From NCBI GenBank assembly GCA_937895935.1, contig CALBKX010000015.1, positions 31,079 through 95,078 on the forward strand: 64,000 bases of DNA. Reading direction: 5' to 3'. A program made the translations under genes and the position numbers. The stretch is from an uncultured Clostridia bacterium (GTDB taxonomy: Bacteria; Bacillota; Clostridia; Christensenellales; UBA1242). Positions 12,196 through 57,953 of the stretch are shown piece after piece; the first letter of the stretch is position 1, and the number at the start of each line of letters is the position of its first letter. The notes beneath the pieces are model-generated. The model was not told the origin of the DNA, did no database searches, and saw only the letters and a list, made by a program, of their open reading frames with translations.

Positions 12196-12600
12196 TTAAA
12201 TTTCATCCAAATATTCTGCCGCCTGAGCAACTAAACTACGTTCAATTCTTCTTAGCTTTACCGCAGCAAAAATTTTAGAATAAATTGGAGATTCTCTTAA
12301 TTTCAGCAATAACTTTAAACCACTCTTATCTTTAAAAATTAAGCTGTCTGTTTGTTTTAAATCACCATCAAAAAAGATTCTGCTATTTTCGCCGCAACGA
12401 GAAATCAAAAGCTTAATATGGTATTCAGTTAAGTTTTGTGCTTCATTGATAATAACAATAGCATTTGAAAAACTGCGTCCTCTGATAGAAGCAATAGGAA
12501 CGACTTCTAATTCTTCTAGTTCAATCATATTTTGAACTCTGTCGATTCCGATTAAGTCAATTAACGGGCCAATTTGACCACTGATTTTTGGGAGTAAATC
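12196..12600 (-). CDS. phoH: PIN-PhoH ATPase, exon 3
   Basis: Begins DLLPKISGQIGPLIDL, continuing the GxLPG|DL.eK PhoH motif. Contains INEAQN (Walker B region). Length 405 nt, in frame. Confidence 0.8.
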   Translation of the reverse strand, partial: DLLPKISGQIGPLIDLIGIDRVQNMIELEELEVVPIASIRGRSFSNAIVIINEAQNLTEYHIKLLISRCGENSRIFFDGDLKQTDSLIFKDKSGLKLLLKLRESPIYSKIFAAVKLRRIERSLVAQAAEYLDEI

Positions 12601-12976: not shown

Positions 12977-13216
12977 CCTTTATACCGTCCTTTTCAGGAT
13001 ACTTTAACACTTTTGTCGGAGTAGACTATATCTTCTTCATTGAAATGAAGTGTGGTTTTTCGGATTTAAAAAATCTACTTCCATAAGGAATAGTCGTTGA
13101 ACTTCCCGTTGGCTAAACGGTTTAGCTGCTGATTACCATATTAACATTAATTTAGGCGTTCCAGCAATTAACCACATTATTCAATATATATTACTATATA
13201 AGGGAGCTAATTAATA
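12977..13216 (-). mobile_element. ORF-less group I intron (240 nt) splitting the Walker A motif of the phoH-like gene
   Basis: Exon 1 ends GCAGSG (ggt, U). The intron ends in G (12977). The next exon starts KS. Confidence 0.8.
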
Positions 13217-13918
13217 ACCCGAACCTGCACAGCCTCCAGCATAAATAATTTTATTATCTCTATCAGATAGTGCGGCAAGTAAGCATTGCTGTTCAGTATT
13301 TCTTGCTCTTAAAGTATCTATATACTTATTATGAATAGCATAAGTATCTTTAACTAAATTAAGTCTAAACCCATCATAACGAAAGGCGGTGATGTCTTTA
13401 TAATCTTCAATTCCATATTTATCAATTTCTTTTTCATACTTATTCTTAACAATCAAAAATTGATTATAATTAAGTTTTAGACCTTCTGGCACAATTCCTT
13501 TTTCATAGACATCTTCCAGTTCTTTAGAATACAGATTGCTATCCAAATCTGGAGACCAATAAGCTACACCGCTATATTCGTCTTTATCACCATATCCTTC
13601 AGTTTTAATACCTTTAATAATGGCTTGAACTTTAAGATATACATCATTTGTAATAAGAATACCATCGTTTTCTTTTGTAATATCTAAAAGCTGCTCATCC
13701 ACAACTTTGTCTCGATAAGTCGAATCCCATTTTAATTTATCTAAATTTCTTGAAATATAAACTGCCGCCCGCCGTGCTTTTTCAGCAACCTCTTTATTTA
13801 AATGCTTTTTTAGTCCATCTAATTCTTTTAGAACAGATAAAGCAATTAAATTATCGTCTTCTTTTTCTACAATTTGTGGATAATCTAATAGAACATTTGT
13901 ATCAATAATTTTTTTCAA
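13217..13918 (-). CDS. phoH: PIN-PhoH ATPase, exon 1 (PIN domain plus first half of the P-loop)
   Basis: N-terminal IIDTNVLLD PIN signature. Ends GGCAGSG. TTG start with RBS AGGAGTGG. Confidence 0.75.
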
Positions 13919-16410: not shown

Positions 16411-16439
16411 AGTATAACATGATTTTTATTTAAAATCAA
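16411..16439 (-). promoter_or_regulatory. Sigma-A type promoter (TTGATT-17-TGtTATACT)
   Basis: The rc reads ttgattttaaataaaaatcatgttatactaattatagtaaatt. Confidence 0.55.
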
Positions 16440-18787
16440 CTTTTTGCTTTAAGCAAATTTGTGATTTCTTGATTTGTTCCTTTCACACCTAAAGCATTTT
16501 TGGAAACAAGAGAAATTTCTTTTGTATTAATTCTTACTGTTCCCTCATTTCCTATAATAATTATATCACAATCCTTATCAGTAGTCAAGAATTTGATAAC
16601 ATAATCATTGTCTTTTACTTTTGAAATCTTATTTCCCATGGTTGCTCTGCCTTGTGCATGATATTCAGATAGCAATGTCTTTTTAATTAAACCATTATGC
16701 GTGGCGGCAACTAAATTTGTAGAGTTGTTAGAAATTGCTTTCGCATCAATTACATAGTCATTTGATTGTAATTTAATTCCTTTTACTCCAGTAGATTGCC
16801 GTCCAATAGCCTCGATACTATCTGAATCGGTAATTAAAAAGTTATTTTTCTTTGTTAAAATTCCAATTTTTTCGTCATTAATTAAACAAACATTTAATAC
16901 TTCATCCCCTTCTTTCAATTTAATTGCCGCCAGACCTCTTTTAGAGCAGCTATTATATAACTTGCTCTCTGACTTTTTAATCATACCATTCTTTGTGATA
17001 AAAAGCAAATATTTGTAAGCATTCTTTTTTTCTGTAGAAATAATGGTAGTAATAATTTCGTCATCAGCTAAGTCCAAAAGTTGTGAGTAATGAACACGAC
17101 CAATTGGAATTTCACTAGCCGGAATTTGATACATTTTCCCCTTATTTGTAAAAACTAGAATATTACTATAATTAGAATCTGTAAGTGAAAAGATAGATAC
17201 TTCGTCCGGCTTCATTTTTAATTTTTTTCCTTTTGCTCCTCGTTTTTGAGTAATTAAAGTGGAAGATTCCATTGTATAAAAATTGCCCATGTTAGTATAA
17301 TTGATTAGTAGTTCTTTTTGTTCAATAGGTTCAGCTTCTTCATCATCAGAAGTAAAGTCCAGATTAATCACCTTTGTCCGGCGTTCATCACCATAAACTT
17401 TTGCCACTTCTCTTAAATCATCTTCAATTTCTTTATAAAGTAATTTTTTGTTGTTTAAAACATTATTATGATACTCTTGCTCTTTTAATAATTTTTCTTT
17501 TTCATCATTAAAAGATTGAATTTCTAAATGAATAAGTCTTGATAGAGTCATTTTAAGAATTGCATCTACTTGTTCTTCATTATACCCAAATCTTTCAATT
17601 AATTTTACTTTGGCTTCATCTTTATCATTTGATTCTCGAATTAAACTAACTACTTCATTAATATTAGCAATAGCTATTAAAAGTCCAGCAATAATATTTA
17701 ATCTTTTATTAATAGCTTTTAAATCAAATTGATGTGCTTTTGTTCTTACAGAAATTTCATGGTCTAAATGAGCTTGCAATGCCTCTTTCCAACCAAATAC
17801 TTTTGGTCTTGTGCCGCCGTCAAGCATAACCATATTAATTCCATAGTAAGATTGTAGAGATGTCTTTTTATATAAAATTTTTAATACTCTCTGATAGTTA
17901 GCACTTTTAGATAAATAAATTTTAATATTAGGAGAAACTTTTGTTAAATCCAGCACCTTATCAATTCCAACCAATTCACCGTTATCAATTAATTCTTTAA
18001 TTTCCCCACAAATTGTATTAGTAAAAACACCAAAAGGAATTTCTCTTACAATTAAAATTCGTTCCGATTCGTCATAATCAATTACACTTCTGATACAACA
18101 TGATTTTCCTGTTCCATTCCTTAAAGATTCTTTTACTTCTTTTTCATTTAAAATTACACCACCACTAATGAAATCCGGCGGACAATAAATTTCATCAAAA
18201 GAAATGTCAGGATTATATAATAATTTAATCATAGCATTATTGGTTTCTTTTAAGGAAAATTGCGGAATTGATGAAGAAATTCCACAAGAGATTCCAGTTG
18301 ACCCATTTACAATATTATAAAATCCTAAAGACGGTAAAACAGAGGGAAATTTTTTAGTATTAGAAAAATTATCAAACCAAACATCAATTGTATCTTTATC
18401 TAACGATTCAAAAAGTTTATCACCTAATTTATTTAAACGCATTTTGGTATATCTACTGGCGGCTTCTGAATTAGCAGATAATAAAGAACCAGTAGAGCCA
18501 TGAAAATCTTCCAAAGGATAACGCATAACATACTCTTTACCATATCTTGCTAAAAGCTTATAACAACTTGAATCACCATGTAAATAATAATTTTTAATAC
18601 ATTCGCCAACAGACGCTGGTGAAGGCTGAATTGTATGTGAGCTATCAATTTTAGCTTCTTTTTGAGCGAAAAAACACATTCGAGCAGAAGGTTTAATATT
18701 ATCTCTAACGTCAGTAATAGCTCTTTGCTGGATAGTCATTGCGGCATATCCAGAAAAAGCTTCTTTAATTGTATTTACTAATTTCAA
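16436..18787 (-). CDS. Type II topoisomerase subunit A (GyrA/ParC-like)
   Basis: QRAITDVRDNIKP and the active-site region AASRYTKMRL. C-terminal beta-pinwheel-like repeats. Confidence 0.8.
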   Translation of the reverse strand: MKLVNTIKEAFSGYAAMTIQQRAITDVRDNIKPSARMCFFAQKEAKIDSSHTIQPSPASVGECIKNYYLHGDSSCYKLLARYGKEYVMRYPLEDFHGSTGSLLSANSEAASRYTKMRLNKLGDKLFESLDKDTIDVWFDNFSNTKKFPSVLPSLGFYNIVNGSTGISCGISSSIPQFSLKETNNAMIKLLYNPDISFDEIYCPPDFISGGVILNEKEVKESLRNGTGKSCCIRSVIDYDESERILIVREIPFGVFTNTICGEIKELIDNGELVGIDKVLDLTKVSPNIKIYLSKSANYQRVLKILYKKTSLQSYYGINMVMLDGGTRPKVFGWKEALQAHLDHEISVRTKAHQFDLKAINKRLNIIAGLLIAIANINEVVSLIRESNDKDEAKVKLIERFGYNEEQVDAILKMTLSRLIHLEIQSFNDEKEKLLKEQEYHNNVLNNKKLLYKEIEDDLREVAKVYGDERRTKVINLDFTSDDEEAEPIEQKELLINYTNMGNFYTMESSTLITQKRGAKGKKLKMKPDEVSIFSLTDSNYSNILVFTNKGKMYQIPASEIPIGRVHYSQLLDLADDEIITTIISTEKKNAYKYLLFITKNGMIKKSESKLYNSCSKRGLAAIKLKEGDEVLNVCLINDEKIGILTKKNNFLITDSDSIEAIGRQSTGVKGIKLQSNDYVIDAKAISNNSTNLVAATHNGLIKKTLLSEYHAQGRATMGNKISKVKDNDYVIKFLTTDKDCDIIIIGNEGTVRINTKEISLVSKNALGVKGTNQEITNLLKAKS

Positions 18788-19403: not shown

Positions 19404-19595
19404 CGCATAAAATGCTGACTATTTCTTTAGTAATTCACTACTTACCGTTTCAGGCTATGTGTCAATAATAGCCTTACTCCTCGACAAAGAGGATAGTCGA
19501 TACAGGATTTTATTCCCACGAGATTTTACCCTCGTTAGCTATTTAATAAAATAACCTCATTGACAAATGACAAAATAAGTAAGGGCGACCCAACC
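19404..19595 (-). mobile_element. ORF-less mini group I intron (192 nt) inside the Toprim EGxSA motif
   Basis: Exon 2 ends CVEG (ggt, U). The intron ends in G (19404). The splice gives VEG|NSAAS. Contains gactat (19430 region) and atagtc (19491 region). Exon lengths 340+938+603 = 1881 nt, in frame. Confidence 0.7.
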
Positions 19596-20533
19596 ACCCT
19601 CAACACACAGGAGAATAGAATTTTCTCCTAATTCTTCAGAATCTTTCAATTTTTCAATAAAAGCTAACTTACTTTTTCTTAATTCTTTCATTTCTTGACT
19701 GTGGTTCAAAACCGCTTCTCTTGCTTTATCAGCTGCCCGTTCAGCTTTATCCACTTGTAGCAGCAAAGTAATTACTTGATTAAAATCTTTTTGTCTTTTA
19801 ACAGAAAATTCTTTTAAGCATTCTGAAATAGCCGCTGATGTAGCTGTTCCTGCTTCTGGATTAGCTAAAGAAGTTTTCTGTTGATTACTCCATTGACCTA
19901 CTCGAACTTTTACAGATACAAAACCACTTAAAACATTTCTGATTAAATCGCCGTTAAATTTAGTATGAGCCAAAGCATTAAAAGTTCTTGTTAAAGAAGA
20001 TTTAAAGGCACTAATAAATCGTCCACCATCTTTTACATACAAAGAATTGGCATAACCTTTAATTTCTCCTCTTTTTTGAACCCATTGTAAAGCCAATTCA
20101 ACTTTACAATCAGCTGTTTCGTAATGATAAGAAAAAGGTTTAGATAAAGCATTCTTATTATTAATTCCGTCAATTAGCCCATTTTCAGAATAAAATTCGG
20201 TTATTTCTCCATCGACTACTAACTTAAATTTTAGCCCTTTAGAAAAATAACTCATATTTTTTAACATTTCTTTTAGTGATTCAACATCAATAAAAATGTT
20301 TCCATATACTTTTGTATCTGGGACATAAGTAATTTTTGTTCCAGTTTCTTTTGTTTTTCCAATAATTTTTACATCATCATCTGCTACAGCTCCTTCATCA
20401 TTAGAATGAAACTTTTGATAATAGATATTATTATCTCTTTTGACTTCTACTTCAAGCCATTCTGCTGTATGACAAACAATTTTGTTTCCTTCCAGTGCCC
20501 TTCGCAATAGTTCATTACTACTGTTGCCGCAAA
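19596..20533 (-). CDS. Type II topoisomerase subunit B (GyrB-like), exon 2 (transducer domain)
   Basis: Collinear with the GyrB transducer. Ends with the Toprim E of LCVEG. Confidence 0.7.
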
Positions 20534-21339
20534 CGCTGCTATATATTGCTATATAGATTAGACTATATCTTTAAGATAATTCTTACTTCGCATTATTTAA
20601 TGCTACTCTACTAAAACATTCTTGAAAAGATATGTTTAATAGCTGTTCCATATTAACATATTCTTTTTCAAGTAAAATTTTTTCGATAGTCGTTGAACGC
20701 TCATCAATTAGATAACCATTTTCTTTCATTTTCTTAATTCTAAATAAAATTGCTTCCCTCAGAATTTGGTTTAAATCGTAATTATATTTTTTTAATGAAA
20801 AAGTTTTTGTTCTTTCTTTTGCTCGCCAGCCGAATCCCTCTATCCATATTGGCTTACCTTCTGTCCAACTTACTCTTATTCTTTGGTATTTTCCATTGTC
20901 TTCATATCTTATCCCATTAAAATTAAATTTATTTGCGACAGTTGTGCTTTGATTCTTTTTATTTAAGCTAGATGATACTAATCTTAAATTACTTTTTTGA
21001 TTATTAAGCCCATTTTTATCTATATGGTCAACTAAAATCTTATTATCTGTAAGACCAAGTATCCATCTATGCATCCGACCATAAGTATCATGAATAGCAT
21101 ACACAGTTTTTCTGTCATGAGAACAATCACTTCTTTTATATCCAGTTAAATACCAACCTTTTTTGGGAATTCTTTCATAATCTTCATCGTCCAGCAGAAC
21201 TTCTGCTCCGCAAGTTAAAATAAATTTTTTCATACAACACCTCTTTAATGAGGTTATCTAATTGTGAACGCTGCTGATTGTCCCATAGGGAGTTTCCAGC
21301 AATTCAAGAATTTTTACAATGGCTCAGGTTAACCATTAC
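20534..21339 (-). mobile_element. Group I intron with HNH-AP2 homing endonuclease gene in the gyrB-like gene (boundaries approximate)
   Basis: Exon 1 is open only to ...SSAIGCNG*. The proposed splice (gga t|tt tgc) gives AIGFCGNSSNELL, aligned to GLHGVGASVVNALS. The 3' 34 nt are near-identical to nrdD intron 1. The intron ends in G (20534). Confidence 0.6.
20583..21233 (-). CDS. HNH homing endonuclease with AP2-like DNA-binding domain (intron-encoded)
   Basis: VDHIDKNGLNNQKSNLRLVSSSLN (HNH_3) and an IRYEDNGKYQRIRVSW (AP2-like) strand. Confidence 0.7.
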   Translation of the reverse strand: MKKFILTCGAEVLLDDEDYERIPKKGWYLTGYKRSDCSHDRKTVYAIHDTYGRMHRWILGLTDNKILVDHIDKNGLNNQKSNLRLVSSSLNKKNQSTTVANKFNFNGIRYEDNGKYQRIRVSWTEGKPIWIEGFGWRAKERTKTFSLKKYNYDLNQILREAILFRIKKMKENGYLIDERSTTIEKILLEKEYVNMEQLLNISFQECFSRVALNNAK

Positions 21340-22287: not shown

Positions 22288-22839
22288 TTACAAGAAAATT
22301 TTGTTATGATATTGCTCGACATCATTTGGATAAATTTCTTTAAAATATTCTTGAGAAATATTTAAAAAATAAGTGTCTTTGTTTTCATAACACTGTTGAT
22401 TATAAGAACCTCTCAAATCTAATCCTTTTAAGACTTTAGTTTTATCAAATCTTCCATCAATAATATAGTTAAAATAAGATAACTTGTCTTTTGGATATAG
22501 TTCTTTTAATTCTTTCATTGTATAACCGCTATAGCAAATAATTTTTTTATTTAATTCTTTGACTCTGCGGCACAGATTTAAAACAGTTTCAATATTTTCT
22601 TTTTCAACTGGATTACCGCCGGATAACACAAAATAAGAAATATGAGGAGACTTTAGTTTGTCTAAAATCTCCTCGATAGTATTATTTGTAAATAGTTTTC
22701 CGCCATTAAAATCCCATGTTTGTTTATTATGGCATTCGGAACAATGTAAATGACATCCACTAACAAATAAAGTTATAGAAATGCCATGACAATTTCCCGT
22801 ATCAAAATTTATGATTTCGTTATAGTTCATTAGCATCAC
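22288..22839 (-). CDS. nrdG: Anaerobic ribonucleotide reductase activating protein (radical SAM)
   Basis: GISITLFVSGCHLHCSECHN CxxxCxxC cluster. Size and neighbourhood with nrdD. Confidence 0.75.
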   Translation of the reverse strand: MMLMNYNEIINFDTGNCHGISITLFVSGCHLHCSECHNKQTWDFNGGKLFTNNTIEEILDKLKSPHISYFVLSGGNPVEKENIETVLNLCRRVKELNKKIICYSGYTMKELKELYPKDKLSYFNYIIDGRFDKTKVLKGLDLRGSYNQQCYENKDTYFLNISQEYFKEIYPNDVEQYHNKIFL

Positions 22840-24404: not shown

Positions 24405-25934
24405 TTAATTTAAATGTTTTACTCTATTATAAACATCCGCCGCACGTCCTTCTTTTACATTATTTAGAGTTGTTAAATAACCGCAAATACGCCAAGAAGT
24501 TCTTACTCTATCTGTCTCGCCACATTTAGGACATTGCCATTTAATTTCTCCGCCATTCATAATCTTTTTAAAGTCATAGCCCATAAATAAACAATCCGGA
24601 TTTTCACATTGAGAAACTTCACTATTAACTTCAGCATATAAACAATTATTACCAATATGTTCAATTATTTCTAACATAGCATCAAGATTATTTGATAAAT
24701 TAGGAACTTCTATATATGAAATACTGCCCCCTTGTGTTTTATCACTAAATTGTGCTTCTGCTGTTAATTTACTAAAAGCATCAATTTTTTGAAAAACTGG
24801 TATATGATAACCATTTGTTAAATATTTTCTTTGAGTTCCATCACCTACTTGTTCAAAATCTCTTAAACAGGCTTTAGCGAATTTATCAGTCAAGGATTCG
24901 GCGGGTGTAGCATATAAAGCAATACTTACATTGACTTTATCCCCAAAACTTTTATTCTTATCATTAAGGTAATCTAAAATTTTATGTGCTAATATTCTAC
25001 CTTTGCCTTCCCAATGATTTCCTCCTGTAATGTATTTTACACATTCATAAAGTCCCATATACCCAAGAGTGCAAGTATAAAATCCACCATAAACTAATTT
25101 TTCAAGATTATCTTCTGGATTTAAACGTGCCATACCACCATAAACCCAAAGTAAAGGACAAGCTTTTGCTTTTATTTTTGCTACATGATTGATTCTCCAA
25201 ACCATATCTTGATAAGCAATATCTAAATAATGGTCAAGATTTTTAAATAAAATCTCTTCAGAACGCTCTTTGTTGTTTTCCATTGCTATATACGGTAAAT
25301 TTAAAGATTGAACTCCGCAATTCCCTCTGCCATATACTTGTAATTTTCCAGTTTCTGGATTAACCCATGGAGAAAGGAGTGCTCTACATCCCATGCTTGG
25401 AGTAGCAATCCCTTTCAATTCCATGTGTTTTTTAACACTCATATAATCTGGAACAAGTCTTTTTGCTGAACATTCAGCACACATTTTTGTTATTTCGTAG
25501 TATTTTCCACCTTTCATAGTATCTTCATCAAGAAAATAAAGAATTTTTGGGAAATTAGGATTTACTTTTAAACCACTTTTATCTTTTACGCCAGAAATTC
25601 TTTGCTTTAACATTTCTTTAAAAATTAGAATTAAATCATCTGTATATTCAGGCTCTTCATTCAAATAAACAGAAACAGTTAAAAAAACAGCTTGCCCAAC
25701 AGAACTACAAAGAGTTGAATTTTGATAATCAAAACACTGCATTCCTTGCTCGATTTCTTTAGATAATCTTTTATTTACAATTTTTGCTTTAGTCTTTTTA
25801 AAATCAAAATTGTGCATCTCATTATTAGAAAAATTATCTAACACAAAATAGATTTCATCTTCAACTTCAGCTTCAATTTTTTTTCGGCTAGCATTAACAA
25901 ATTTGGCAAGATGCAATAAATTAATAGTGCAACC
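24405..25934 (-). CDS. nrdD: Anaerobic ribonucleoside-triphosphate reductase, exon 3 (glycyl radical domain)
   Basis: Begins GCTINLL, continuing ...SYG|G. C-terminal zinc cysteines CENPDC...CPKCG and glycyl radical motif RICGYL. Confidence 0.85.
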   Translation of the reverse strand, partial: GCTINLLHLAKFVNASRKKIEAEVEDEIYFVLDNFSNNEMHNFDFKKTKAKIVNKRLSKEIEQGMQCFDYQNSTLCSSVGQAVFLTVSVYLNEEPEYTDDLILIFKEMLKQRISGVKDKSGLKVNPNFPKILYFLDEDTMKGGKYYEITKMCAECSAKRLVPDYMSVKKHMELKGIATPSMGCRALLSPWVNPETGKLQVYGRGNCGVQSLNLPYIAMENNKERSEEILFKNLDHYLDIAYQDMVWRINHVAKIKAKACPLLWVYGGMARLNPEDNLEKLVYGGFYTCTLGYMGLYECVKYITGGNHWEGKGRILAHKILDYLNDKNKSFGDKVNVSIALYATPAESLTDKFAKACLRDFEQVGDGTQRKYLTNGYHIPVFQKIDAFSKLTAEAQFSDKTQGGSISYIEVPNLSNNLDAMLEIIEHIGNNCLYAEVNSEVSQCENPDCLFMGYDFKKIMNGGEIKWQCPKCGETDRVRTSWRICGYLTTLNNVKEGRAADVYNRVKHLN

Positions 25935-27075
25935 CAATAATATAAAGGTTTTTTAATTACCCTTATATTTTAGACTATTTCTTGTAATCTTTTTGGTTGA
26001 TTACCGATGTGTTTCAAACATTGCCACCAATGTCCTACAATTAGTCGTTACAATTATTTATTAATTTTATATTATATTTTTCGGGAGTTTCTAAATATCT
26101 ACGAACTTGAGTTTCAGATTTTCCCATAAATTTTGATAAAGCTGCGACACTTTTAAATTCATATTTGTCTTTGTAAATAATTTTGTCAAAAATAAATCTT
26201 CGTTTTATAACTGGTTTTCTATTTAATTCTCTATAGGAATGAAGATTGTTTTCAGATTGTGAAACCCATTCTAAATTAATAGATTTATTGTTAGTAATAT
26301 CACCGTCTTTATGATTAATAGTGTTATGTTTTTCATCATGACCTTCGCAAAAGGCAAATCCCACTAATCTTGCAACTTGGTATATTTTAGATTCATTATT
26401 TTTACTTAATACTGCTTGTAGTCTACCACTTATAGGGTTTACACAATATCTTAAAAGAATTTCTTCATTCAAATATTTTGTTTTTATTCTGCCATAATTT
26501 GACACTTGATAATTCTCATATCCTAAAATTTCTTTCCAAATTTCTCCGTCAATTAAATTGTCTTTTAATAAAATTTTATTATTACTTTGCTTTGTTTCAG
26601 AATTCCTTTTTTGCCATTCTTTGTAAGCTTTTTGAAGCACCTTGTCATATTTAAACAATCTGACAAGACTATCATTACTTATTTTTATTTCTTTGGCAAT
26701 ATTTGTAATAGTATTGTTTCTACCAAGTTGAGAAATTATGTATTGTTTATATTCATTTAATATTTTTTCATTTTTCGGCGTTAAATGCATTTTAGATTGA
26801 TTTTGAGGAAAATTCCATTCTTTAATTTTTTTTCCAACTATTCTTCTATCTATTTCAAGTAGTCGAGCTATATAAGTTTTGGTTCTCCCCTCGTTTGTAT
26901 ATAATTGATAGATAGTATTTCTTAAAAGTTCGCATTTTTCTTTATTTGTCATCTTGTATTCCACCTTAAATTAATAAATAATCACGAGATTAGCTTTTCC
27001 ATCCTACCTCGTTAGCTGCGATACGCAACCCCGTTTTGACGGTTAACATCGTTTTGATACGGCAGTTTATTTTAA
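25935..27075 (-). mobile_element. Group I intron (1141 nt) with HNH/NUMOD homing endonuclease gene in nrdD
   Basis: Exon 2 ends tac ggt (U). The intron ends in G (25935). Contains tagactat (25969 region) and tagtcg (26041 region) pairing partners. Confidence 0.75.
26041..26964 (-). CDS. HNH homing endonuclease with NUMOD4-like and HTH modules (intron-encoded)
   Basis: YQVSNYGRIKT (NUMOD4) and INHKDGDITNNKSINLEWVSQSENN (HNH_3). Confidence 0.7.
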   Translation of the reverse strand: MEYKMTNKEKCELLRNTIYQLYTNEGRTKTYIARLLEIDRRIVGKKIKEWNFPQNQSKMHLTPKNEKILNEYKQYIISQLGRNNTITNIAKEIKISNDSLVRLFKYDKVLQKAYKEWQKRNSETKQSNNKILLKDNLIDGEIWKEILGYENYQVSNYGRIKTKYLNEEILLRYCVNPISGRLQAVLSKNNESKIYQVARLVGFAFCEGHDEKHNTINHKDGDITNNKSINLEWVSQSENNLHSYRELNRKPVIKRRFIFDKIIYKDKYEFKSVAALSKFMGKSETQVRRYLETPEKYNIKLINNCND

Positions 27076-27237: not shown

Positions 27238-27496
27238 CAGTCATTTCTGTGCCGTTCTCTTATGAACTGCTATATATTACTATATAGATTAGACTATATC
27301 ATCAACTTAAAACAAGTTGTCCACTTTTTCGTTTTATTTAAAAAACTACTCATTTCTGATAGTCGTTAGGCTTTTAAAATTTAGCACGGCAAGTTATCTT
27401 CTTTAATTGAAATTGTATTAAAGACTTTCTCCGTTTAAATAGATTTTTCTAATATTCTCACGAACATTAGGCACAGCTTTTATTTATGCTTCTAAA
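27238..27496 (-). mobile_element. ORF-less group I intron (about 259 nt) in nrdD; the 5' boundary could be 3 nt either way
   Basis: Exon 1 is open to ...FHDMSYSFRSINKSCA*. The intron ends in G (27238). The splice HDMSYS|CEYKWENC restores E. coli-like spacing between HD and NC. Shares a 34-nt 3' block with gyrB intron 1. Confidence 0.75.
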
Positions 27497-27973
27497 AGAA
27501 TAGGACATATCATGAAAATATACTACTCCTCTATCATGAGCTTCTAAAGCATCTTTAGGTAAAGCTTCACGCATAGCTTCTTTACTGGGGATTTCTGCCA
27601 AATACGAATTTTTGATATGAGTTAATTCAGTATCTTTGTTAGCATTTTCTTCTTTTACTTCTTTTGTAGAATAAAGAACTTTTTCAATTTCTGTAGGATT
27701 TTTATTAATTCGCTCTTTATTAATTTTATAATCAGAATACTGTCTTGCTATATCAGGAGCTTTATCATAGAGAACACTCATAACGATATTTTCTATTTCG
27801 CTATTAGATACGGCATCCTTTCCTTTCATTACTACTTTAGTTGTAATTTCATTAGTTAAAGAATCAATAAAATCAAAATCCGGCAACTTAATTTGATTAG
27901 CCGCTTGAATGATTGCTCTTCTAATTTTATTACTGTCATATGGTATTTCTTTATTATTTTTAATTACTACCAT
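27497..27973 (-). CDS. nrdD: Anaerobic ribonucleoside-triphosphate reductase, exon 1 (ATP-cone)
   Basis: ATP-cone VIKNNKEIPYDSNKIRRAI. Ends at the HD of the conserved HDxxxY region. Confidence 0.8.
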
Positions 27974-30869: not shown

Positions 30870-31137
30870 TGATATTCTCCTTTAAGATGTAATATTCTCT
30901 GTTTTTTTCTCCAATACAGCAGTCTTTTGAAATACCTTTTGGTTCGTATTCAAAAGTCCAAGCAATTGTTTCCATTTCACCCGTATTAAAATACTTATCT
31001 TTATCAATATAAAAAATCTTTTTCAATCTTCCAGTATTATAAGGGTCATAAGGAACTGTTTCTAATCTATAAATTCTTCTTTTTTTTGATTCGGTATTAA
31101 TAAAATTTAAAAATTCTTCTTTATTTACTGTTGTCAT
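30859..31137 (-). CDS. Hypothetical protein (92 aa)
   Basis: ORF only. Confidence 0.35.
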   Translation of the reverse strand: MTTVNKEEFLNFINTESKKRRIYRLETVPYDPYNTGRLKKIFYIDKDKYFNTGEMETIAWTFEYEPKGISKDCCIGEKNREYYILKENINDR

Positions 31138-31145
31138 GATACTCC

Positions 31146-31700
31146 TTATCTATTAATTTGATTAATTTCGCTATAAATTTCTCTCCAATCTTTACATCTA
31201 ATTCCTCTAAATTCAGCGTTCCAAGGATAAGCAAAACAAATAGAATGCTTAGCCCCTCCAAAGTTTTTTACACAATCATCAATAAGAATATCAACTTTCA
31301 TTAAGGTCTTGTCGGGGCAACAGAAGAAACACTTACGAATTTCAAGATATGGAAATAGTTTTTCTAACCATTTTGCTTTTTTGTAGAAATTATAAGGCTC
31401 TGTTTTGGTGATAAATAAAATTCGATGTCCTTCGTTGAATAATTTTAAAATATATTTTTGACAATCTGGCACAACTTTAATTCGCCGCCATACTTCTTTA
31501 TTTAAAAAAATTTTATAAAATCCCTCTTTGTATTGCGGCTTAACAAAGTTTTCAATATTATATTTTGTAATATCAGATACTTTAAGATTATCATCTGCTT
31601 CTTCATTATAAACAGATAATACAGCTTCACAAAGGTTATTTAATACGTTGTCAATATCAATTCCAATAGTCATTAAATTCTCCTTTACTGTCTTTCCCAA
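31146..31700 (-). CDS. 5'(3')-deoxyribonucleotidase (HAD/NT5C family)
   Basis: IGIDIDNVLNNL DxDxV HAD motif I. Size typical of NT5C. Confidence 0.55.
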   Translation of the reverse strand: MGKTVKENLMTIGIDIDNVLNNLCEAVLSVYNEEADDNLKVSDITKYNIENFVKPQYKEGFYKIFLNKEVWRRIKVVPDCQKYILKLFNEGHRILFITKTEPYNFYKKAKWLEKLFPYLEIRKCFFCCPDKTLMKVDILIDDCVKNFGGAKHSICFAYPWNAEFRGIRCKDWREIYSEINQINR

Positions 31701-32125: not shown

Positions 32126-32689
32126 TTATGAAATCAACTTTTCTTCAACACAAAAATTATATGCTAATTCTTTAAGATGTTCTAAGTCGCTGTCGTTATT
32201 AATAATAATATTATATTTAAAATTATCTACATTAAGGTCGGCGGCATTATTTTTACAATAGTCATTGTCTGGTCTTTTTACAAGAATGGATTTTGAATTA
32301 GGAATAGTATTTAATAATTTTTTAATTTCTTCTGGTTCTCTACAGTGAATAAATAAAGCTTTTGTTTCCATTTCTAAATCTTGTTTATAAATATTTATAA
32401 CATAATTATATGATAAATCACAATAGTTAGTTAATAGTTCTTTTAGTTCACACATTACTTTTCTATCTTTATCTTCTTTTTGTCCATTCCAATTACAATA
32501 AGTTCTCATAATATCTTTAATTGGGTCAATAGTCGAAATATTATCTATATTAATTGCCGGAACAATTCTTTTCATAGAATTAAGTCTATATTCTTCTTTT
32601 GGATATTTATTATTATACATATCTTTAATTAAGTCAACAAAAGTATCTTTACCTGCTCTACTATGTCCATTAATTATATATACTTTCAT
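32126..32689 (-). CDS. Deoxynucleoside monophosphate kinase-like P-loop protein
   Basis: MKVYIINGHSRAGKDTFVDLI resembles the T4 gp1 N-terminus (LSGVKRSGKDT). Confidence 0.5.
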   Translation of the reverse strand: MKVYIINGHSRAGKDTFVDLIKDMYNNKYPKEEYRLNSMKRIVPAINIDNISTIDPIKDIMRTYCNWNGQKEDKDRKVMCELKELLTNYCDLSYNYVINIYKQDLEMETKALFIHCREPEEIKKLLNTIPNSKSILVKRPDNDYCKNNAADLNVDNFKYNIIINNDSDLEHLKELAYNFCVEEKLIS

Positions 32690-47403: not shown

Positions 47404-47434
47404 AGAGCAGCCTAATTGACTGCTCTCTTTTTTT
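47404..47434 (+). terminator. Rho-independent terminator ending the structural/LRR operon
   Basis: Hairpin agagcag/ctgctct followed by cttttttt. Confidence 0.7.
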
Positions 47435-47444
47435 ATGCTATAAT
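47416..47444 (+). promoter_or_regulatory. Sigma-A type promoter (TTGACT-17-TGcTATAAT); the -35 is inside the terminator hairpin
   Basis: ttgactgctctctttttttatgctataattgatttatagaaaa. Confidence 0.6.
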
Positions 47445-49319: not shown

Positions 49320-49807
49320 TGTATATTACAGGTGGACAATTCACCGATACAATAAACAAAGATATTGATTTTTTAATTAATAAGTGGAATAATATTGTAA
49401 AAGAAAATGATACCGTATTATATGTGGGAGATTTTGTTTATTCAAACGAAACTGATTTAAGAAATACCATTGAGCAGTTAAATGGTAAAATTTGTATTTT
49501 ACAGCAGAATAACGGTGAAGCAGAAAAGGATAAACTATTAAGAAACGGTATTCATTCTGTGTTTAGAATTCCTTTTTATCTTGCTATTGAAGATACCGAT
49601 AGTAAAATAATTTTTAACTATACTCCAGAAAAAGATAAAATTGGAGATAATTATTATATTGTTTTTTCAAAAGAATCAAAAATTTATGATGCTGATACAC
49701 ATACTTTAAATTTGTATTGCGGTTTGTGGGATTATTCGCCCATTTCACTAGATATGTGTCCTACTATTCTACAAAATATGATTGACTTTGAAAAAATGGA
49801 GGGGTAA
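49316..49807 (+). CDS. Hypothetical protein (163 aa), weakly metallophosphoesterase-like
   Basis: The VLYVGDFVY segment resembles calcineurin-like motif II, but the other motifs are absent. Confidence 0.3.
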   Translation: MMYITGGQFTDTINKDIDFLINKWNNIVKENDTVLYVGDFVYSNETDLRNTIEQLNGKICILQQNNGEAEKDKLLRNGIHSVFRIPFYLAIEDTDSKIIFNYTPEKDKIGDNYYIVFSKESKIYDADTHTLNLYCGLWDYSPISLDMCPTILQNMIDFEKMEG

Positions 49808-49808
49808 A

Positions 49809-50399
49809 ATGGAAATTAGAGATATTGTTAATAATGAAAAAATTTATGGAATTGAAGAATCTTTTAGAGCTTCTAAGTTCCCAATGTCAACGGATGTTAA
49901 TGAATGTGATAAGAATTTTCGAGATAGACAAGTTAAGTTAGCTAATGCTCCTGCCGGCTCTGGACACGATTGTTTTTTAAAAGGCATTGTCGTTCAATTT
50001 GATTTAAGCTTTACAAATAAGGCTTGGGTTGAAGCAGAACGCTATCATTTTTTTGATATTATCTCAAGTCAATCGACAATGCATTGTTTACCGAAATTTG
50101 ACCTCTATAAGTCCTATTGCGAATACGTAGACGAGAGAATGATTGCTATTATGCGAGGATTGTTAAATAATTATAATAATAATAAAACAACTGAAAACAG
50201 ATTAAAATTACTCTATTCTAATCCTTGTGGTTTTATTTTAACAGCGAGAATTACCACAAATTATTTACAATTAAAGACTATTTATGCTCAGAGAAAGAAC
50301 CATACTCTTCCAGAATGGAGATTATTTTGTAAATGGATTGAACAATTACCTTATAGCAATTTGATTACAGGGGGAAAAAATGGAACAGATTTATCTTGA
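49809..50399 (+). CDS. Divergent ThyX-like (flavin-dependent thymidylate synthase family) protein lacking the canonical RHR motif
   Basis: GSGHDCFLKGIVVQFDL...AERYHFFDIISSQSTMH aligns with ThyX GH.S.LEH..F.F.I...SR....Q..RHR..S.S..S.RY. C-terminal TTNYLQLKTIYAQRKNHTLPEWRLF aligns with MN.REL.HF..LR....AQ.EIR. Start ATG 49809 after GGAGGGG. Confidence 0.45.
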   Translation: MEIRDIVNNEKIYGIEESFRASKFPMSTDVNECDKNFRDRQVKLANAPAGSGHDCFLKGIVVQFDLSFTNKAWVEAERYHFFDIISSQSTMHCLPKFDLYKSYCEYVDERMIAIMRGLLNNYNNNKTTENRLKLLYSNPCGFILTARITTNYLQLKTIYAQRKNHTLPEWRLFCKWIEQLPYSNLITGGKNGTDLS

Positions 50400-51540
50400 T
50401 TATGCCGCAACTCATCCATGTTTTACAGGAAAATTTTTAAAAATGTGTTATAAAGACATAGGCAACCCTTCTTCTACACACGAATCTGGATTAATTCTTA
50501 AAAGAAATTATGACCAAACGATAGAATATCTTAAAAAGAATTTGTTTGCTAATGACATTACTATTACTTCTGGAGCAACTGAATCTAATAATTTGGCGGC
50601 AAGAATTGGAATTGAATATTGTTTAGAAAAACCATATACAAATGGTATTGCTTATAGTAGCATTGAACATCCATCAGTAAGTAAAGCCATTGAAGGACAT
50701 TCAAAAGATGTTTTTTTATGGACGTATGAACTTGGATTGCGATATTTTTTTGGAAAAGGTTGGGAAGAAAGATTAAAAAATAAGTTAAAAGACTGTAATA
50801 TTGGCTTTCTTTCGGTTATGACAGTTAACAATGAAACTGGCATTCGTTTTCCTGTTGAAAAGATTTACAAGATTTGTAGAGAATTAGGTGTATTGTTTCA
50901 TACAGATGCTTCACAATCTTGGCTACAGGTAAATCTAAATCCTAATTATGATAGAGAAAATAATTTATATATGATAACTTATTCTGGACACAAAATTGGA
51001 GCGTCTATTGGTAGCGGAATTTTAGTCAATGGACAAAATCTTTGTCGAGTAGTTCCTTGTCTATTGTATGGCGGCGAACAGCAAGATTTACGCTCAGGAA
51101 CTTTAAATTATCCTACCTTAAGAGAATTGGACTATGCGATTTTGAATTATAAGCTTAAAAAGCATTATGACGTTAGCAATGGAGTAAGAGGATATAAAAA
51201 AGCTTTTGCAGACTTAATTAAACAATACTCTGGAGAAATTATTACTTATAAGGATTGCTATAATTACTCGCCATATATTTTAAGTTTTTATTTCAAAAAT
51301 TTTGATGGAGAATTTGTCCAAAAGTTTATGTCAAAGAATGGAATCTATCTTTCTGCTGGTTCTGCTTGTTCTAGAGGAAATAGACAAGGTTCTAAAACGA
51401 TTAAAGAACTGGGATATAATGAACAAATAGCAAAAAATGCTTTAAGAATTTCTTTTTCACCACATATGCTTGAAGAAGAACTTGCTTATGCTTATAAGCG
51501 TTTCAAAGAGGTGCTGATTGAATTAAATGAATTGTCCTAA
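50380..51540 (+). CDS. Cysteine desulfurase (class V aminotransferase; NifS/IscS/DndA-like)
   Basis: LDYAATHP, SGATESNN, HTDASQS, PLP lysine YSGHKIGA, active-site loop SAGSACS. Confidence 0.75.
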   Translation: MEQIYLDYAATHPCFTGKFLKMCYKDIGNPSSTHESGLILKRNYDQTIEYLKKNLFANDITITSGATESNNLAARIGIEYCLEKPYTNGIAYSSIEHPSVSKAIEGHSKDVFLWTYELGLRYFFGKGWEERLKNKLKDCNIGFLSVMTVNNETGIRFPVEKIYKICRELGVLFHTDASQSWLQVNLNPNYDRENNLYMITYSGHKIGASIGSGILVNGQNLCRVVPCLLYGGEQQDLRSGTLNYPTLRELDYAILNYKLKKHYDVSNGVRGYKKAFADLIKQYSGEIITYKDCYNYSPYILSFYFKNFDGEFVQKFMSKNGIYLSAGSACSRGNRQGSKTIKELGYNEQIAKNALRISFSPHMLEEELAYAYKRFKEVLIELNELS

Positions 51541-52516
51541 AAATAAGGAAATAGTTAAAGCTTTTTTAACAACAGAAGAAAAACTAAAAGATTATAAAAA
51601 CATCATGCTTACTACATCTGGCGGTGCGGATTCTGATATTATGCTTGATATGGTATATAGAAATTTGCCGCCAAATACTAATATTCATTATGTGTTTTTT
51701 GATACTGGACTTGAATTTCAAGCGTCAAAAGACCATTTAAAAGAACTTGAAAAAAAATATAATATTAAAATTGAAGTTGAAAAACCTTATAAGCCGATTC
51801 CAGTTTGTTGTAAAGAATATGGACAGCCATTTCTGTCTAAATTCATTAGTGATTACATTAGTCGTTTACAACGTCATGATTTTAAATGGGAAGACAGACC
51901 TTTTGAGGAACTTTACAAAGAATATCCACATTGTAAGTCTGCTTTAAAATGGTGGTGTAATTATCAGCCCGGCAGAAAAGATGGCTCTCAGTCTAAATTT
52001 GGAATCGGCTATTATCCTTATCTGAAAGAATATATGGTATTAAATCCTCCAACTTTTAAAATTTCAGATAAGTGCTGCCAATATTCTAAAAAAGAAGCAG
52101 CAAAGAATTATCATAAGAAATATAATATCGATTTAACTATGACAGGTGTTCGCAAAGCAGAAAAGGGGCAAAGAGCAGATGCTCATAAAAGCTGCTTTAG
52201 CCGCCATGACAAAGGTAAACCAGATGAATACAGACCGTTATTCTGGTTTAAAAAGCAAGATAAAATTGATTATGATGAATTCTTTGAAATTAAACACAAT
52301 CGATGTTATACTGTTTATGGAATGGATAGGACTGGCTGTGGCGGCTGTCCATTTGGTAAGGACTTTGAGGAAGAGCTTTTAATCATGGAGAAGTTTGAAC
52401 CTAAGCTAAAAAAAGCAGCTGAATACATTTTTAAGGATTCATATGAATATACCAGAAGATATAGAGAATTTAGAAAGAAAAGAACAGAGGAGGATAAAAA
52501 AAAGAATGAAGAATAA
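51527..52516 (+). CDS. PAPS-reductase-family PP-loop ATP pyrophosphatase with multiple Cys pairs (DndC/TtuA-like)
   Basis: PP-loop TTSGGADSD, TGVRKAEKGQRA, YRPLFWF...YGMDRTGCGGCPFG, plus CC pairs. Overlaps the desulfurase gene by 14 nt. Confidence 0.65.
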   Translation: MNCPKNKEIVKAFLTTEEKLKDYKNIMLTTSGGADSDIMLDMVYRNLPPNTNIHYVFFDTGLEFQASKDHLKELEKKYNIKIEVEKPYKPIPVCCKEYGQPFLSKFISDYISRLQRHDFKWEDRPFEELYKEYPHCKSALKWWCNYQPGRKDGSQSKFGIGYYPYLKEYMVLNPPTFKISDKCCQYSKKEAAKNYHKKYNIDLTMTGVRKAEKGQRADAHKSCFSRHDKGKPDEYRPLFWFKKQDKIDYDEFFEIKHNRCYTVYGMDRTGCGGCPFGKDFEEELLIMEKFEPKLKKAAEYIFKDSYEYTRRYREFRKKRTEEDKKKNEE

Positions 52517-52688
52517 TTATGTTGTAAAAAGAAGCAGATTAGGTTATACTGTTAAGGTAAGGTTAAGAACTAAGCAAGAAGTTGAGAGTTTAATTTCTTA
52601 TTTAACAAAGCCTTTGCTTAGCACTTATATAATTTCTTTTAGAAAGGAGACAGCACAATGTGGGGATTTATCTTACTTGGCGTTTTGA
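52506..52688 (+). CDS. Hypothetical small basic protein (60 aa)
   Basis: ATG 52506 overlaps the stop region of the previous gene. The tracked ORF start 52443 lies inside the previous gene. Confidence 0.35.
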   Translation: MKNNYVVKRSRLGYTVKVRLRTKQEVESLISYLTKPLLSTYIISFRKETAQCGDLSYLAF

Positions 52689-52732: not shown

Positions 52733-52746
52733 AAGGAGATTTGCGT

Positions 52747-53004
52747 ATGTTTAATAGAGTTATGCTTTTGGGAACACAAGATGTTAAGAAGTTTGTTGAT
52801 TTAGCTAATACAGTTAAGTCAGATGTAAGACTTATGAATCGTTCTAGAAATTATGTCGTTGATGGCAAATCTTATTTGGGCGTGCTATTGGCAGCAACTG
52901 AATGGAAAGATGATACATGGATTCAATGCGATGAAGATATTTATAGTCTTATGGAATATTTTATTGTAATTTGTGCTGATGATGCCGCCAATGTTCATGA
53001 GTAA
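52747..53004 (+). CDS. Second HPr/Crh-like fold protein, also without a His15 equivalent
   Basis: VVDGKSYLGVLLAATEWKDDTWIQCDED aligns with HPr V(N/D)(A/L)KS(I/L)(M/L)GV(M/L).L. Start ATG 52747 after AAGGAG. Confidence 0.45.
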   Translation: MFNRVMLLGTQDVKKFVDLANTVKSDVRLMNRSRNYVVDGKSYLGVLLAATEWKDDTWIQCDEDIYSLMEYFIVICADDAANVHE

Positions 53005-54318: not shown

Positions 54319-54355
54319 CTACTGTAGGGATTATATCTCTACAGTTTTTCTTTTT
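54319..54355 (+). terminator. Rho-independent terminator
   Basis: Hairpin ctgtag/ctacag followed by tttttcttttt. Confidence 0.6.
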
Positions 54356-57435: not shown

Positions 57436-57512
57436 GAGATATTAGCTCAGTTGGTAGAAGCGTTATACTTTTAATATAAAGGTCGAGGGTTCAAATCCCT
57501 CATATCTCACCA
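57436..57512 (+). tRNA. tRNA-Lys (anticodon UUU) with encoded CCA
   Basis: Manual cloverleaf. Acceptor gagatat/atatctc. D arm gct(c)/(a)agc with loop agttggta. Anticodon stem ttata/tataa with loop cTTTTaa. T arm gaggg-ttcaaat-ccctc. Discriminator A plus CCA. Confidence 0.85.
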
Positions 57513-57515
57513 AAA

Positions 57516-57547
57516 AGTCAATAGTTTTTTCTATTGACTATTTTTTT
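57516..57547 (+). terminator. Rho-independent terminator after the tRNA
   Basis: Hairpin agtcaatag/ctattgact followed by attttttt. Confidence 0.75.
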
Positions 57548-57569
57548 ATCTAAAAAGGAGAAAAATATC

Positions 57570-57953
57570 ATGATTAGTTTTGAAAACGGTAAAGCAAAAG
57601 TGAATACCAATCCACTTAAACCTTGTAAGAGAATGGTTTTTATCTCTCAGCCAATGAGGGGTTTAACAGAGGAACAGATTAAACAAAGAAAACATGAAGC
57701 AATTGAAAAAATTCTTTATGTTATCAAAGAAGTTTATGGAACAGATGAAGTGGGAATTATTGATAGCTATCTTTCAAACACCCCAAAGTCTGATAATCCA
57801 AGTGTTTGGTGTCTTGGTCGGGCAATTCAATTGATGGCGGATGCTGATTTAGTTTTTGTCTGTGATGGATACGAAAATGCTCGTGGTTGTTTAATTGAAG
57901 TTGAGGTTGCTAAGAAGTATAATATTCCAATTATTTATGAGGAGGACTGCTAA
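57570..57953 (+). CDS. DUF4406 / nucleoside 2-deoxyribosyltransferase-like protein
   Basis: MVFISQPMRGL...ADLVFVCDGYENARGCLIEVEVAKKYNIPI pattern, typical of the DUF4406 Rossmann-like family. Start ATG 57570. Confidence 0.45.
   Translation: MISFENGKAKVNTNPLKPCKRMVFISQPMRGLTEEQIKQRKHEAIEKILYVIKEVYGTDEVGIIDSYLSNTPKSDNPSVWCLGRAIQLMADADLVFVCDGYENARGCLIEVEVAKKYNIPIIYEEDC

Follow-up and report, generated by a model that had tools for sequence, protein, structure and literature searches.

The gA–gB–gC locus

The 64,000-nucleotide stretch analysed here, referred to as the window (positions 31,079 to 95,078 of contig CALBKX010000015.1, assembly GCA_937895935.1, filed under an uncultured Clostridia bacterium), is part of a large phage genome of ~29% GC, of which near-identical IMG/VR contigs measure 144–161 kb. 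Three overlapping genes on its forward strand at 49809–52516, designated gA, gB and gC, are the subject of this report: gA encodes a protein with the fold of the thymidylate synthase ThyX, gB a cysteine desulfurase-like protein and gC a PP-loop protein with the fold of the 3′-phosphoadenosine 5′-phosphosulfate (PAPS) reductases. All of the motifs quoted for them in an earlier interpretation, made from the DNA letters and termed here the sequence-only reading, were found in the translations. Between them, gB and gC have the appearance of a working pair for mobilising sulfur.

Neighbouring genes of the trio overlap by 20 nt (gA/gB) and 14 nt (gB/gC), the latter overlap suggesting that translation of gB and gC is coupled, and Shine–Dalgarno-like sequences precede gA and gB. 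We take the start of gA to be the ATG preceded by GGAGGGG; the mechanical list of open reading frames (ORFs) starts the gene at a TTG at 49782.

The desulfurase-like protein gB

The gB protein matches the Pfam family Aminotran_5 with 89.5 bits (cut-off 21.5; E 2.8e-25), aligns over its full length to the structures of IscS (5wt2), DndA, SspA and NifS-like proteins, and contains the motifs ATESNN, HTDA.Q, SGHK (with the lysine that binds pyridoxal 5′-phosphate, PLP), RSGTLN and the SAGSAC cysteine loop (SAGSACS). The earlier description of gB as a NifS/IscS/DndA-like desulfurase is thus borne out, and the sequence predicts an intact class-I (NifS/IscS/NifZ-like) PLP cysteine desulfurase. It falls below every equivalog cut-off for such enzymes in NCBIfam, with 153.9 bits against 530.75 for NifS, 143.1 against 480 for DndA and 138.2 against 643 for IscS. 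PADLOC models matched it as SspA (E 1e-55) and DndA (9e-53), and it is 27% identical to a genuine DndA, that of the dndABCDE cluster on an Agrobacterium Ti plasmid, which served as our Dnd reference throughout.

Within phages gB was found only in the lineage of the window, at 88–94% identity, falling to 56% in the more distant relative L017. Beyond this lineage the matches are ~30–35% identical (best 33%) and, where the source is named, come from Clostridia such as Lachnospiraceae. Four of the five nearest cellular relatives that we sampled (from Lachnotalea, Paludicola, Anaerosacchariphilus and one metagenomic sequence) lie directly upstream of thiI, in a conserved prmA–rsmE–desulfurase–thiI block; the fifth does not. 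In Bacillus subtilis the NifZ–ThiI pair makes 4-thiouridine in tRNA, and YrvO–MnmA is the analogous pair for 2-thiouridine. Because its nearest cellular relatives adjoin thiI, the ancestral role of gB would have been to deliver sulfur to a PP-loop thiolase rather than to a NifU/IscU scaffold, and the best reading of these similarities is that the phage lineage captured gB from a Clostridia-type host, from among desulfurases of the ThiI-partner type.

Two genes after gC, at 52741–53004 (+), an 87-residue protein shows a weak match to the phosphotransferase-system protein HPr (9e-4). It is 30–37% identical over 35–53 residues (E 3e-4) to the HPr-like gene that follows thiI at cellular loci (L101:6689-6919, L103:6541-6774 and L104:5453-5692), which there lies on the opposite strand, so that the likeness may be a trace of capture or a coincidence. 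We considered capture of a whole nifZ–thiI–hpr block from the host and, with a single weak similarity (pairwise E 3e-4) and a difference of strand, leave it as a hint.

The PP-loop protein gC

The translation of gC carries SGGADS and GCGGCPFG, matches Pfam PAPS_reduct with 58.2 bits (cut-off 22.5; E 1.4e-15) and belongs to the phage protein family phrog_424 (1e-29). Single-sequence and profile searches of gA and gC against PDB chains yielded only PP-loop-level or chance matches; these being uninformative, the folds were compared instead. The AlphaFold2 model of gC has a predicted local distance difference test (pLDDT) score of 93.9, and its best Foldseek matches are reductases of adenosine 5′-phosphosulfate (APS) or PAPS (4bwv, 6vpu, 1sur and 2goy; probability 1.0, target template-modelling (TM) score 0.61–0.70), followed by TtuA, CysD, TilS, FAD synthase, NcsA and LarE. 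Against viral models Foldseek returned only ‘PAPS reductase’ labels, and tblastn against plasmids gave three matches, all named ‘PAPS reductase family protein’, none of them linking gC to DndC.

The sequence-only reading had placed gC in a PAPS-reductase/DndC/TtuA type. The PAPS-reductase-fold PP-loop and both motifs stand, but membership with DndC or TtuA fails in profile tests: the DndC models of NCBIfam (DNA_S_dndC) and PADLOC gave no match to gC at E ≤ 0.01, and Pfam ATP_bind_3 (PF01171), the family of TtuA, TtcA and NcsA, scored 14.5 bits against a cut-off of 27. The structures of TtuA and NcsA compare with the model at TM 0.36–0.41 and a root mean square deviation of 13–16 (13–14 for TtuA). 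As judged from its sequence, gC shares a general plan with DndC, SspD, CysH and TtuA but belongs to none of these families.

Across 42 homologues of gC the PP-loop residues S31, G33, D35, S36 and D37 (SGGxDS) are invariant, as are the cysteines C136, C144, C183–C184, C223 and C260 and those within R268-T-G-C271-x-G-C274-P. We presume from this pattern that the CC...GCxxCP cysteines form a [4Fe-4S] site; iron–sulfur APS reductases share the CC...CxxC layout of cluster ligands.

The usual database annotation would make gC a CysH-type PAPS or APS reductase that boosts cysteine synthesis in the host, and genome papers describe its phage homologues accordingly, as CysH-like auxiliary genes (PMC6145125). 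The Pfam match and the structural matches fit this explanation, as gC shares the alpha/beta fold of CysH, its best structural match. However, models of CysH and APS_reductase give gC only 26–38 bits against cut-offs of 154–254, a shortfall of more than 100 bits from the curated thresholds, and align residues 23–100 alone, each covering 65–80 residues at the N-terminus. The gC protein also has ~100 additional residues, an extra helical insert, a basic C-terminal helix and several invariant cysteines specific to its family, and a desulfurase, which consumes cysteine, is a poor companion for an enzyme of cysteine synthesis. The sequence-only reading had set its proposal of a nucleic-acid modification against a firm grouping of gC with CysH reductases that bear the ECGLH motif. 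We found no such grouping: the CysH models score 36–38 bits against 154–165 and cover the N-terminal PP-loop, and none of the 42 family members has the ECGLH tail (searched as EC[GA][LIV]H) or a C-terminal catalytic cysteine. Lacking that tail, gC is unlikely to reduce a sulfonucleotide, and we regard a role in sulfate assimilation as extremely improbable.

The family is large (>3600 clusters), with thousands of homologues, 50–60% identical, in phages and prophages of Bacillota. It is common in small temperate phages, and its neighbours elsewhere are genes for replication, recombination and DNA methylases. One 34-kb phage contig (L010:6001-10449) has three PAPS-reductase-family genes (324, 450 and 419 residues) close together, followed after a few genes by an N6/N4 DNA methyltransferase.

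The ratio of nonsynonymous to synonymous substitution rates (dN/dS) of gC is 0.03 against a close relative, and gB (0.13) is under purifying selection there as well; against L017, a dS of 0.8 with a dN of 0.02 indicates strong constraint on gC and not recent transfer. In L017 an 868-bp insertion (L017:11931-12798) interrupts the gene after codon 267, directly before RTGCGGCP and equivalent to window position ~52327/52328. Within this insertion lies a group I intron (RF00028, 70.4 bits); the gC of the window is intron-free. Group I introns usually insert themselves where important genes are best conserved, and the position of this one, right before GCxxCP, therefore marks a highly conserved site.

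Pairing of gB with gC

The genomic context of gC was surveyed in IMG/VR, at the 80 best loci for gC homologues, within a radius of 10 kb. The gene normally stands alone in phages, and in phrog_424 a desulfurase lies directly ahead of it only in the lineage of the window. Within that lineage the arrangement is kept: L017 retains the gA–gB–gC order, with identities to the window of 81% (gA), 56% (gB) and 97% (gC). The earlier suggestion that the desulfurase and the PP-loop protein form a sulfur-mobilising pair gains from this conservation, from the overlap of the two genes and from the ThiI-linked ancestry of gB. Between the window and L017, gB and gC have evolved at very unequal rates, synonymous sites being near saturation in both.

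A recurrent partner of gC was also sought by clustering its neighbours (±4 genes) at 86 loci, and no desulfurase, DNA-binding protein or ATPase recurred. The only recurrent neighbours are hypothetical proteins of related ~150-kb gut phages, in a sample that is phylogenetically redundant. One protein seen in such phages, of 296 residues and with a radical S-adenosylmethionine (SAM)-like CxxxCxxC motif, is encoded three to four genes upstream of gC homologues (L080:3235-4125 and ten other IMG/VR loci).

Proposed activity and substrate

We propose that the proteins of gB and gC work together as an ATP-dependent module for sulfur insertion, consisting of a captured donor and a phage PP-loop iron–sulfur enzyme, and put the probability of this reading at about 45%. 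In the proposed mechanism, gB would convert cysteine to alanine and hold the sulfur as an enzyme-bound persulfide on its SAGSAC loop; gC would bind ATP at its SGGADS PP-loop, adenylate an oxygen of the substrate (a nucleobase carbonyl or a phosphate) and exchange this oxygen for sulfur by means of its CC dyad, the [4Fe-4S] cluster of CC...GCxxCP, or both. A host desulfurase would stand in for gB in most of the phages that carry gC. The analysis establishes the folds, motifs, purifying selection and overlap of the genes, and the ancestry and distribution of each; the transfer of sulfur from gB to gC, the cluster and the substrate we infer. The coupling of gC to a desulfurase suggests that the phage PAPS-reductase family inserts sulfur into nucleic acid and does not reduce sulfate.

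The substrate would be a nucleic acid or a nucleotide, with phage DNA or a deoxynucleoside monophosphate (dNMP) slightly favoured over tRNA. The first of these is favoured because of the genes among which the gC family is found and because the known nucleic-acid-directed enzymes of the PAPS-reductase fold act on DNA. In a bolder form of the proposal, which we think unlikely, phrog_424 as a whole would be a self-sufficient nucleic-acid thiolase that needs only a desulfurase as helper and tags phage DNA, or the precursors of that DNA, with sulfur. The sulfur could be present in a thio-nucleobase (2-thio- or 4-thio-thymidine, for instance) or in a phosphorothioate whose formation requires no partners of the DndD/DndE type.

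Several lines point to tRNA instead: the ancestry of gB, the phage-encoded tRNA-Lys(UUU), the RNA-related genes nearby, and the sensitivity of phage lambda to the balance between thiolation of tRNA-Lys and iron–sulfur metabolism. Bacterial tRNA-Lys(UUU) bears 2-thiouridine at the wobble position, and gB–gC could introduce this modification into position 34 of the phage tRNA, or 4-thiouridine into position 8, tuning the decoding of the very AT-rich genome or evading anticodon-directed defences. Besides the ThiI-partner type of gB and the tRNA itself, nearby genes encode an RNA-binding protein of Ro-like type (phrog_850) and a protein with an HD domain, the iron–sulfur PP-loop tRNA thiolases TtuA and NcsA are among the structural matches of gC, and lambda infection responds to tRNA-Lys thiolation as it is set against the synthesis of iron–sulfur clusters (PMC3296357). 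However, gC is of the PAPS-reductase type and not of the MnmA/ThiI/TtuA type, as its ATP_bind_3 score, its low TM with TtuA and its PP-loop-only alignment with ThiI indicate; THUMP and PUA domains are absent from it, as is any other recognisable domain for RNA binding, and its family is common in the replication modules of small temperate phages. Thiolation of tRNA by the pair is accordingly doubtful in our view, decidedly on the unlikely side.

A number of observations weigh against sulfur insertion by gB and gC. At 77 of the 80 surveyed loci no desulfurase lay within 10 kb of the gC homologue, and the three exceptions are of the lineage of the window; the proximity of the two genes is therefore a lineage-specific event, which could be incidental. 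Constraint on gB is weaker than that on its neighbours (dN/dS 0.13–0.35). The hhalign comparison of gC with ThiI covers the PP-loop only, and that of the gC family with the genuine DndC spans 20 PP-loop columns at a probability of 4.6%. The DNA-targeting partners DndD/DndE or SspB/SspC are absent beside gB and gC, as are BrxC/Z/L. The iron–sulfur cluster of gC is read from motifs, the same four-cysteine CC...CxxC layout occurs in APS reductase, yet the cluster of that enzyme transfers no sulfur, and the phage has another iron–sulfur client in NrdG.

The last of these points bears on the main rival explanation, in which gB merely supplies sulfide for building or repairing the [4Fe-4S] clusters of gC and NrdG during infection, so that gC need not transfer sulfur at all. 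The sequence-only reading had overlooked this serious rival, and likewise the wide spread of the gC family and the phage tRNA-Lys(UUU). An anaerobic ribonucleotide reductase NrdD and its radical-SAM activase NrdG are indeed encoded by the phage, implying that the host is anaerobic and that there is a second iron–sulfur client protein; the four-cysteine motif of gC resembles that of APS reductase, and viral desulfurase and iron–sulfur genes are commonly taken as auxiliary metabolic genes in viromes. DndA, too, was first characterised as the assembler of the DndC cluster, according to work cited in PMC8569181. Against this, gB seems translationally coupled to gC while the gene for NrdG is on the other arm of the genome, at a distance of 27 kb, no gene for a NifU, IscU or SufU scaffold was seen in the window, and the cellular kin of gB are linked to thiI and not to nifU. 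We judge cluster supply to be an unlikely account of gB, and, were it the right one, the locus would offer an ordinary auxiliary-gene story.

The two genes might also be coincidental neighbours, gB acting as a stand-alone auxiliary or host-takeover gene (on cysteine and alanine pools or on sulfur trafficking) and gC acting independently. The solitary state of gC in most of the sampled loci, the far faster evolution of gB in the comparison with L017 and the frequency of overlapping genes in phages, whatever their function, would all be expected on this explanation. Nevertheless, the order of desulfurase and then PP-loop gene mirrors the cellular nifZ–thiI order, and the pair has been kept across a dS greater than 0.8; mere coincidence is very unlikely in our estimation.

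To our knowledge, phage ‘PAPS reductases’ are among the sulfur auxiliary metabolic genes most often reported from viromes, and none has a demonstrated function. The coupling of gC to a desulfurase offers a testable function for this very common and unexplained gene family. If sulfur insertion by gB and gC is correct, a common annotation would be corrected, a minimal route by which two proteins produce thio-modified DNA or RNA could come to light, and the production of sulfur-modified nucleic acids would gain a compact pair of enzymes. If phrog_424 as a whole proved to be a DNA thiolase, viral DNA modification would gain a new class, and the ‘CysH auxiliary genes’ of gut and soil viromes would have to be re-annotated in their thousands.

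The ThyX-fold protein gA

The gA protein belongs to phrog_6721 (3e-48); no Pfam match (E ≤ 0.1), and hence no match to Thy1 (PF02511), and no NCBIfam match was obtained. Its AlphaFold2 model, built with 46 homologues, has a pLDDT of 90.6, and the top 50 PDB matches of the model in Foldseek are all ThyX/Thy1 thymidylate synthases (for example 3ah5 and 1o26; probability 1.0, TM 0.48–0.68). The earlier claim of a ThyX fold without the RHR motif is confirmed in this way: the translation contains the quoted ERYHFFDIISSQSTMH, and the ThyX signature RHRxxSxxxxSxR reads RYHFFDIISSQST in gA. An hhalign comparison of the gA family with Thermotoga maritima ThyX (TM0449) found no significant alignment (probability 0.7%), so that residue equivalences, taken from a manual ungapped alignment with that protein (identical in sequence to PDB 1kq4/1o26), are tentative. 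By this alignment, which agrees with the sequence-only reading, GH53, R78 and R174 (the invariant R162 of gA) are kept, whereas RHR has become RYH, S88 glutamine and R90 threonine; these changes in the catalytic motif make binding of flavin adenine dinucleotide and of deoxyuridine monophosphate doubtful.

Clustered at 90% identity, the gA family comprises at least 8000 clusters; at 50% it has 3141 representatives. Among 45 of its longer members, two touch Pfam Thy1 weakly and five carry HNH_3 insertions (Pfam), and one homologue of 303 residues (P0082) contains a MazG pyrophosphohydrolase domain (PF03819). With a dN/dS of 0.03 against a close relative, gA is under purifying selection.

The sequence-only reading had grouped gA with the two sulfur genes; a place for gA in the pathway we do not, on the present evidence, uphold. 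Elsewhere its family adjoins a DNMK–NT5C fusion, ribonucleotide reductase and dUTPase, or lies in replication modules without sulfur genes, and only six of the 80 gC-homologue loci have a gA homologue within 10 kb, three of these six being the lineage of the window. Because of these neighbourhoods in nucleotide metabolism and replication, we set gA apart from the sulfur module; it is probably an independent enzyme of nucleotide metabolism and a bystander to the pair.

Other features of the phage genome

The window is made up of a left and a right arm, which diverge from a meeting point near 33 kb. The left arm, on the reverse strand, encodes DNA polymerase, primase, DnaB, RecJ, topoisomerase II, a split NrdD, NrdG, ligase, NT5C and a DNMK-like kinase; tail and lysis genes are found on the right arm, followed by a long stretch of early-type genes that contains the trio. 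Of the nucleotide genes noted earlier, NT5C and the DUF4406-like gene are present, and the dNMP kinase-like gene scores below its cut-off (Table 1).

The trio, described earlier as lying in an operon, does not form an operon of its own. It is embedded in a longer unit which, in a simple scan, runs from a promoter-like site to the first terminator-like site after it (Table 1) and comprises genes for a Lar-like protein, a UvrD-like helicase, an uncharacterised protein and a phosphoesterase-like protein, then gA, gB and gC, several small ORFs and an HD-domain protein. The small basic ORF that follows gC continues the coupled gene string; it is also called as a gene in the relatives L004–L006 and L017, and had no match in PADLOC.

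Table 1. Position of the trio and of other features in the window.
Feature	Position	Strand	Remarks
gA	49809–50399	+	ORF, 196 aa
gB	50380–51540	+	ORF, 386 aa
gC	51527–52516	+	ORF, 329 aa
Small basic ORF	52506–52688	+	60 aa; 11-nt overlap with gC stop codon
Promoter-like site	47416–47444	+	TTGACT-17-TATAAT with TG; 11/12 matches; consensus match only
First strong terminator-like hairpin 3′ of trio	54321–54345	+	11-pair stem, then T run; consensus match only
tRNA-Lys(UUU), phage-encoded	57436–57512	+	ARAGORN; Rfam 68.4 bits; 5 kb downstream of gB/gC
DUF4406/deoxyribosyltransferase-like gene	57534–57953		
DNMK-like gene	32126–32689	−	23.9 bits, under Pfam cut-off of 27.1
NT5C	31146–31700	−	
NrdD, N-terminal part	27467–27973	−	With ATP-cone
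HNH endonuclease ORF	26041–26964	−	Between NrdD pieces
NrdD, remainder	24405–25937	−	
NrdG	22288–22839	−	Radical-SAM activase

Mobile elements occur in the replication arm as well. A group I intron (RF00028, 69.6 bits, E 1.4e-15) lies at 13004–13226 (−), between the ORFs 12196–12528 and 13211–13918. Topoisomerase II is encoded in pieces at 16436–18787 and 19557–20507 (−), adjoined by an HNH_3 ORF at 20583–21233, and the stretches 20539–20606 and 21270–21315 beside these pieces match the L017 intron, which suggests another intron or homing element there.

The word GGCGGC occurs 67 times in the window (for example at 2209, 34311, 50595 and 52340) against 1.75 expected, with a maximum of six in shuffled sequences, and has the extended consensus T-GGCGGC-A/G. 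Left of 33.3 kb, 20 copies are on the reverse and 10 on the forward strand; to the right, 31 are on the forward and six on the reverse strand. The word thus follows the polarity of the arms, which suggests a polar signal, either Chi-like or connected with packaging or replication. A link to the sulfur genes was considered and set aside: strikingly enriched as the word is, nothing connects it to the trio.

Comparison with known systems

The sequence-only reading likened gB and gC to DndA and DndC, the sulfur-mobilising core of DNA phosphorothioation. As an analogy in logic the comparison holds, since Dnd and Ssp systems likewise combine a class-I desulfurase with a PAPS-reductase-family PP-loop protein bearing cluster-type cysteines, and DndA supplies DndC as SspA supplies SspD (PMC8569181, PMC12914056). 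Membership in these systems does not hold, given the lack of a match to DndC models, the 20-column alignment and the missing DndD/DndE or SspB/SspC. The reference DndC has 511 residues and gC 329; read by eye, KCCQYSKK and RTGCGGCP of gC resemble RWC143TDRLK and RFGC268WVC271T of DndC, the shared patterns being [W/C]C-x3-[RK]K and GCxxC[PT]. The sole PADLOC matches of gC are BrxP (2.7e-12) and SspD (2.5e-6), both confined to residues 24–101, the PP-loop part. As had been noted from the sequence, no DndB, DndD or DndE lies in the window: tblastn with these proteins gave nothing there (all E > 0.5), and PADLOC found no Dnd, Ssp or Brx component among ten proteins of the surrounding genes.

Our literature search found no paper on a phage module of desulfurase and PAPS reductase, none giving a function to the phage family and none reporting thio-nucleobases in phage DNA; the searched portions of the phosphorothioation surveys PMC12914056, PMC10853773 and PMC8569181 likewise contain no phage module of a desulfurase and a PAPS-reductase-like protein.

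The closest parallel is with the NifZ–ThiI and YrvO–MnmA pairs of Bacillota, in which, as in the phage, a desulfurase lies directly 5′ of a PP-loop ATP pyrophosphatase, joining a persulfide donor to an adenylating enzyme. The phage pair differs in being phage-encoded and in the nature of its second member, since gC has the PAPS-reductase fold and neither a THUMP nor a ThiI domain. A PP-loop protein of phage type thus occupies the position of ThiI in what is otherwise the cellular gene order, and we see in gB and gC a variation on the theme of desulfurase and PP-loop thiolase.

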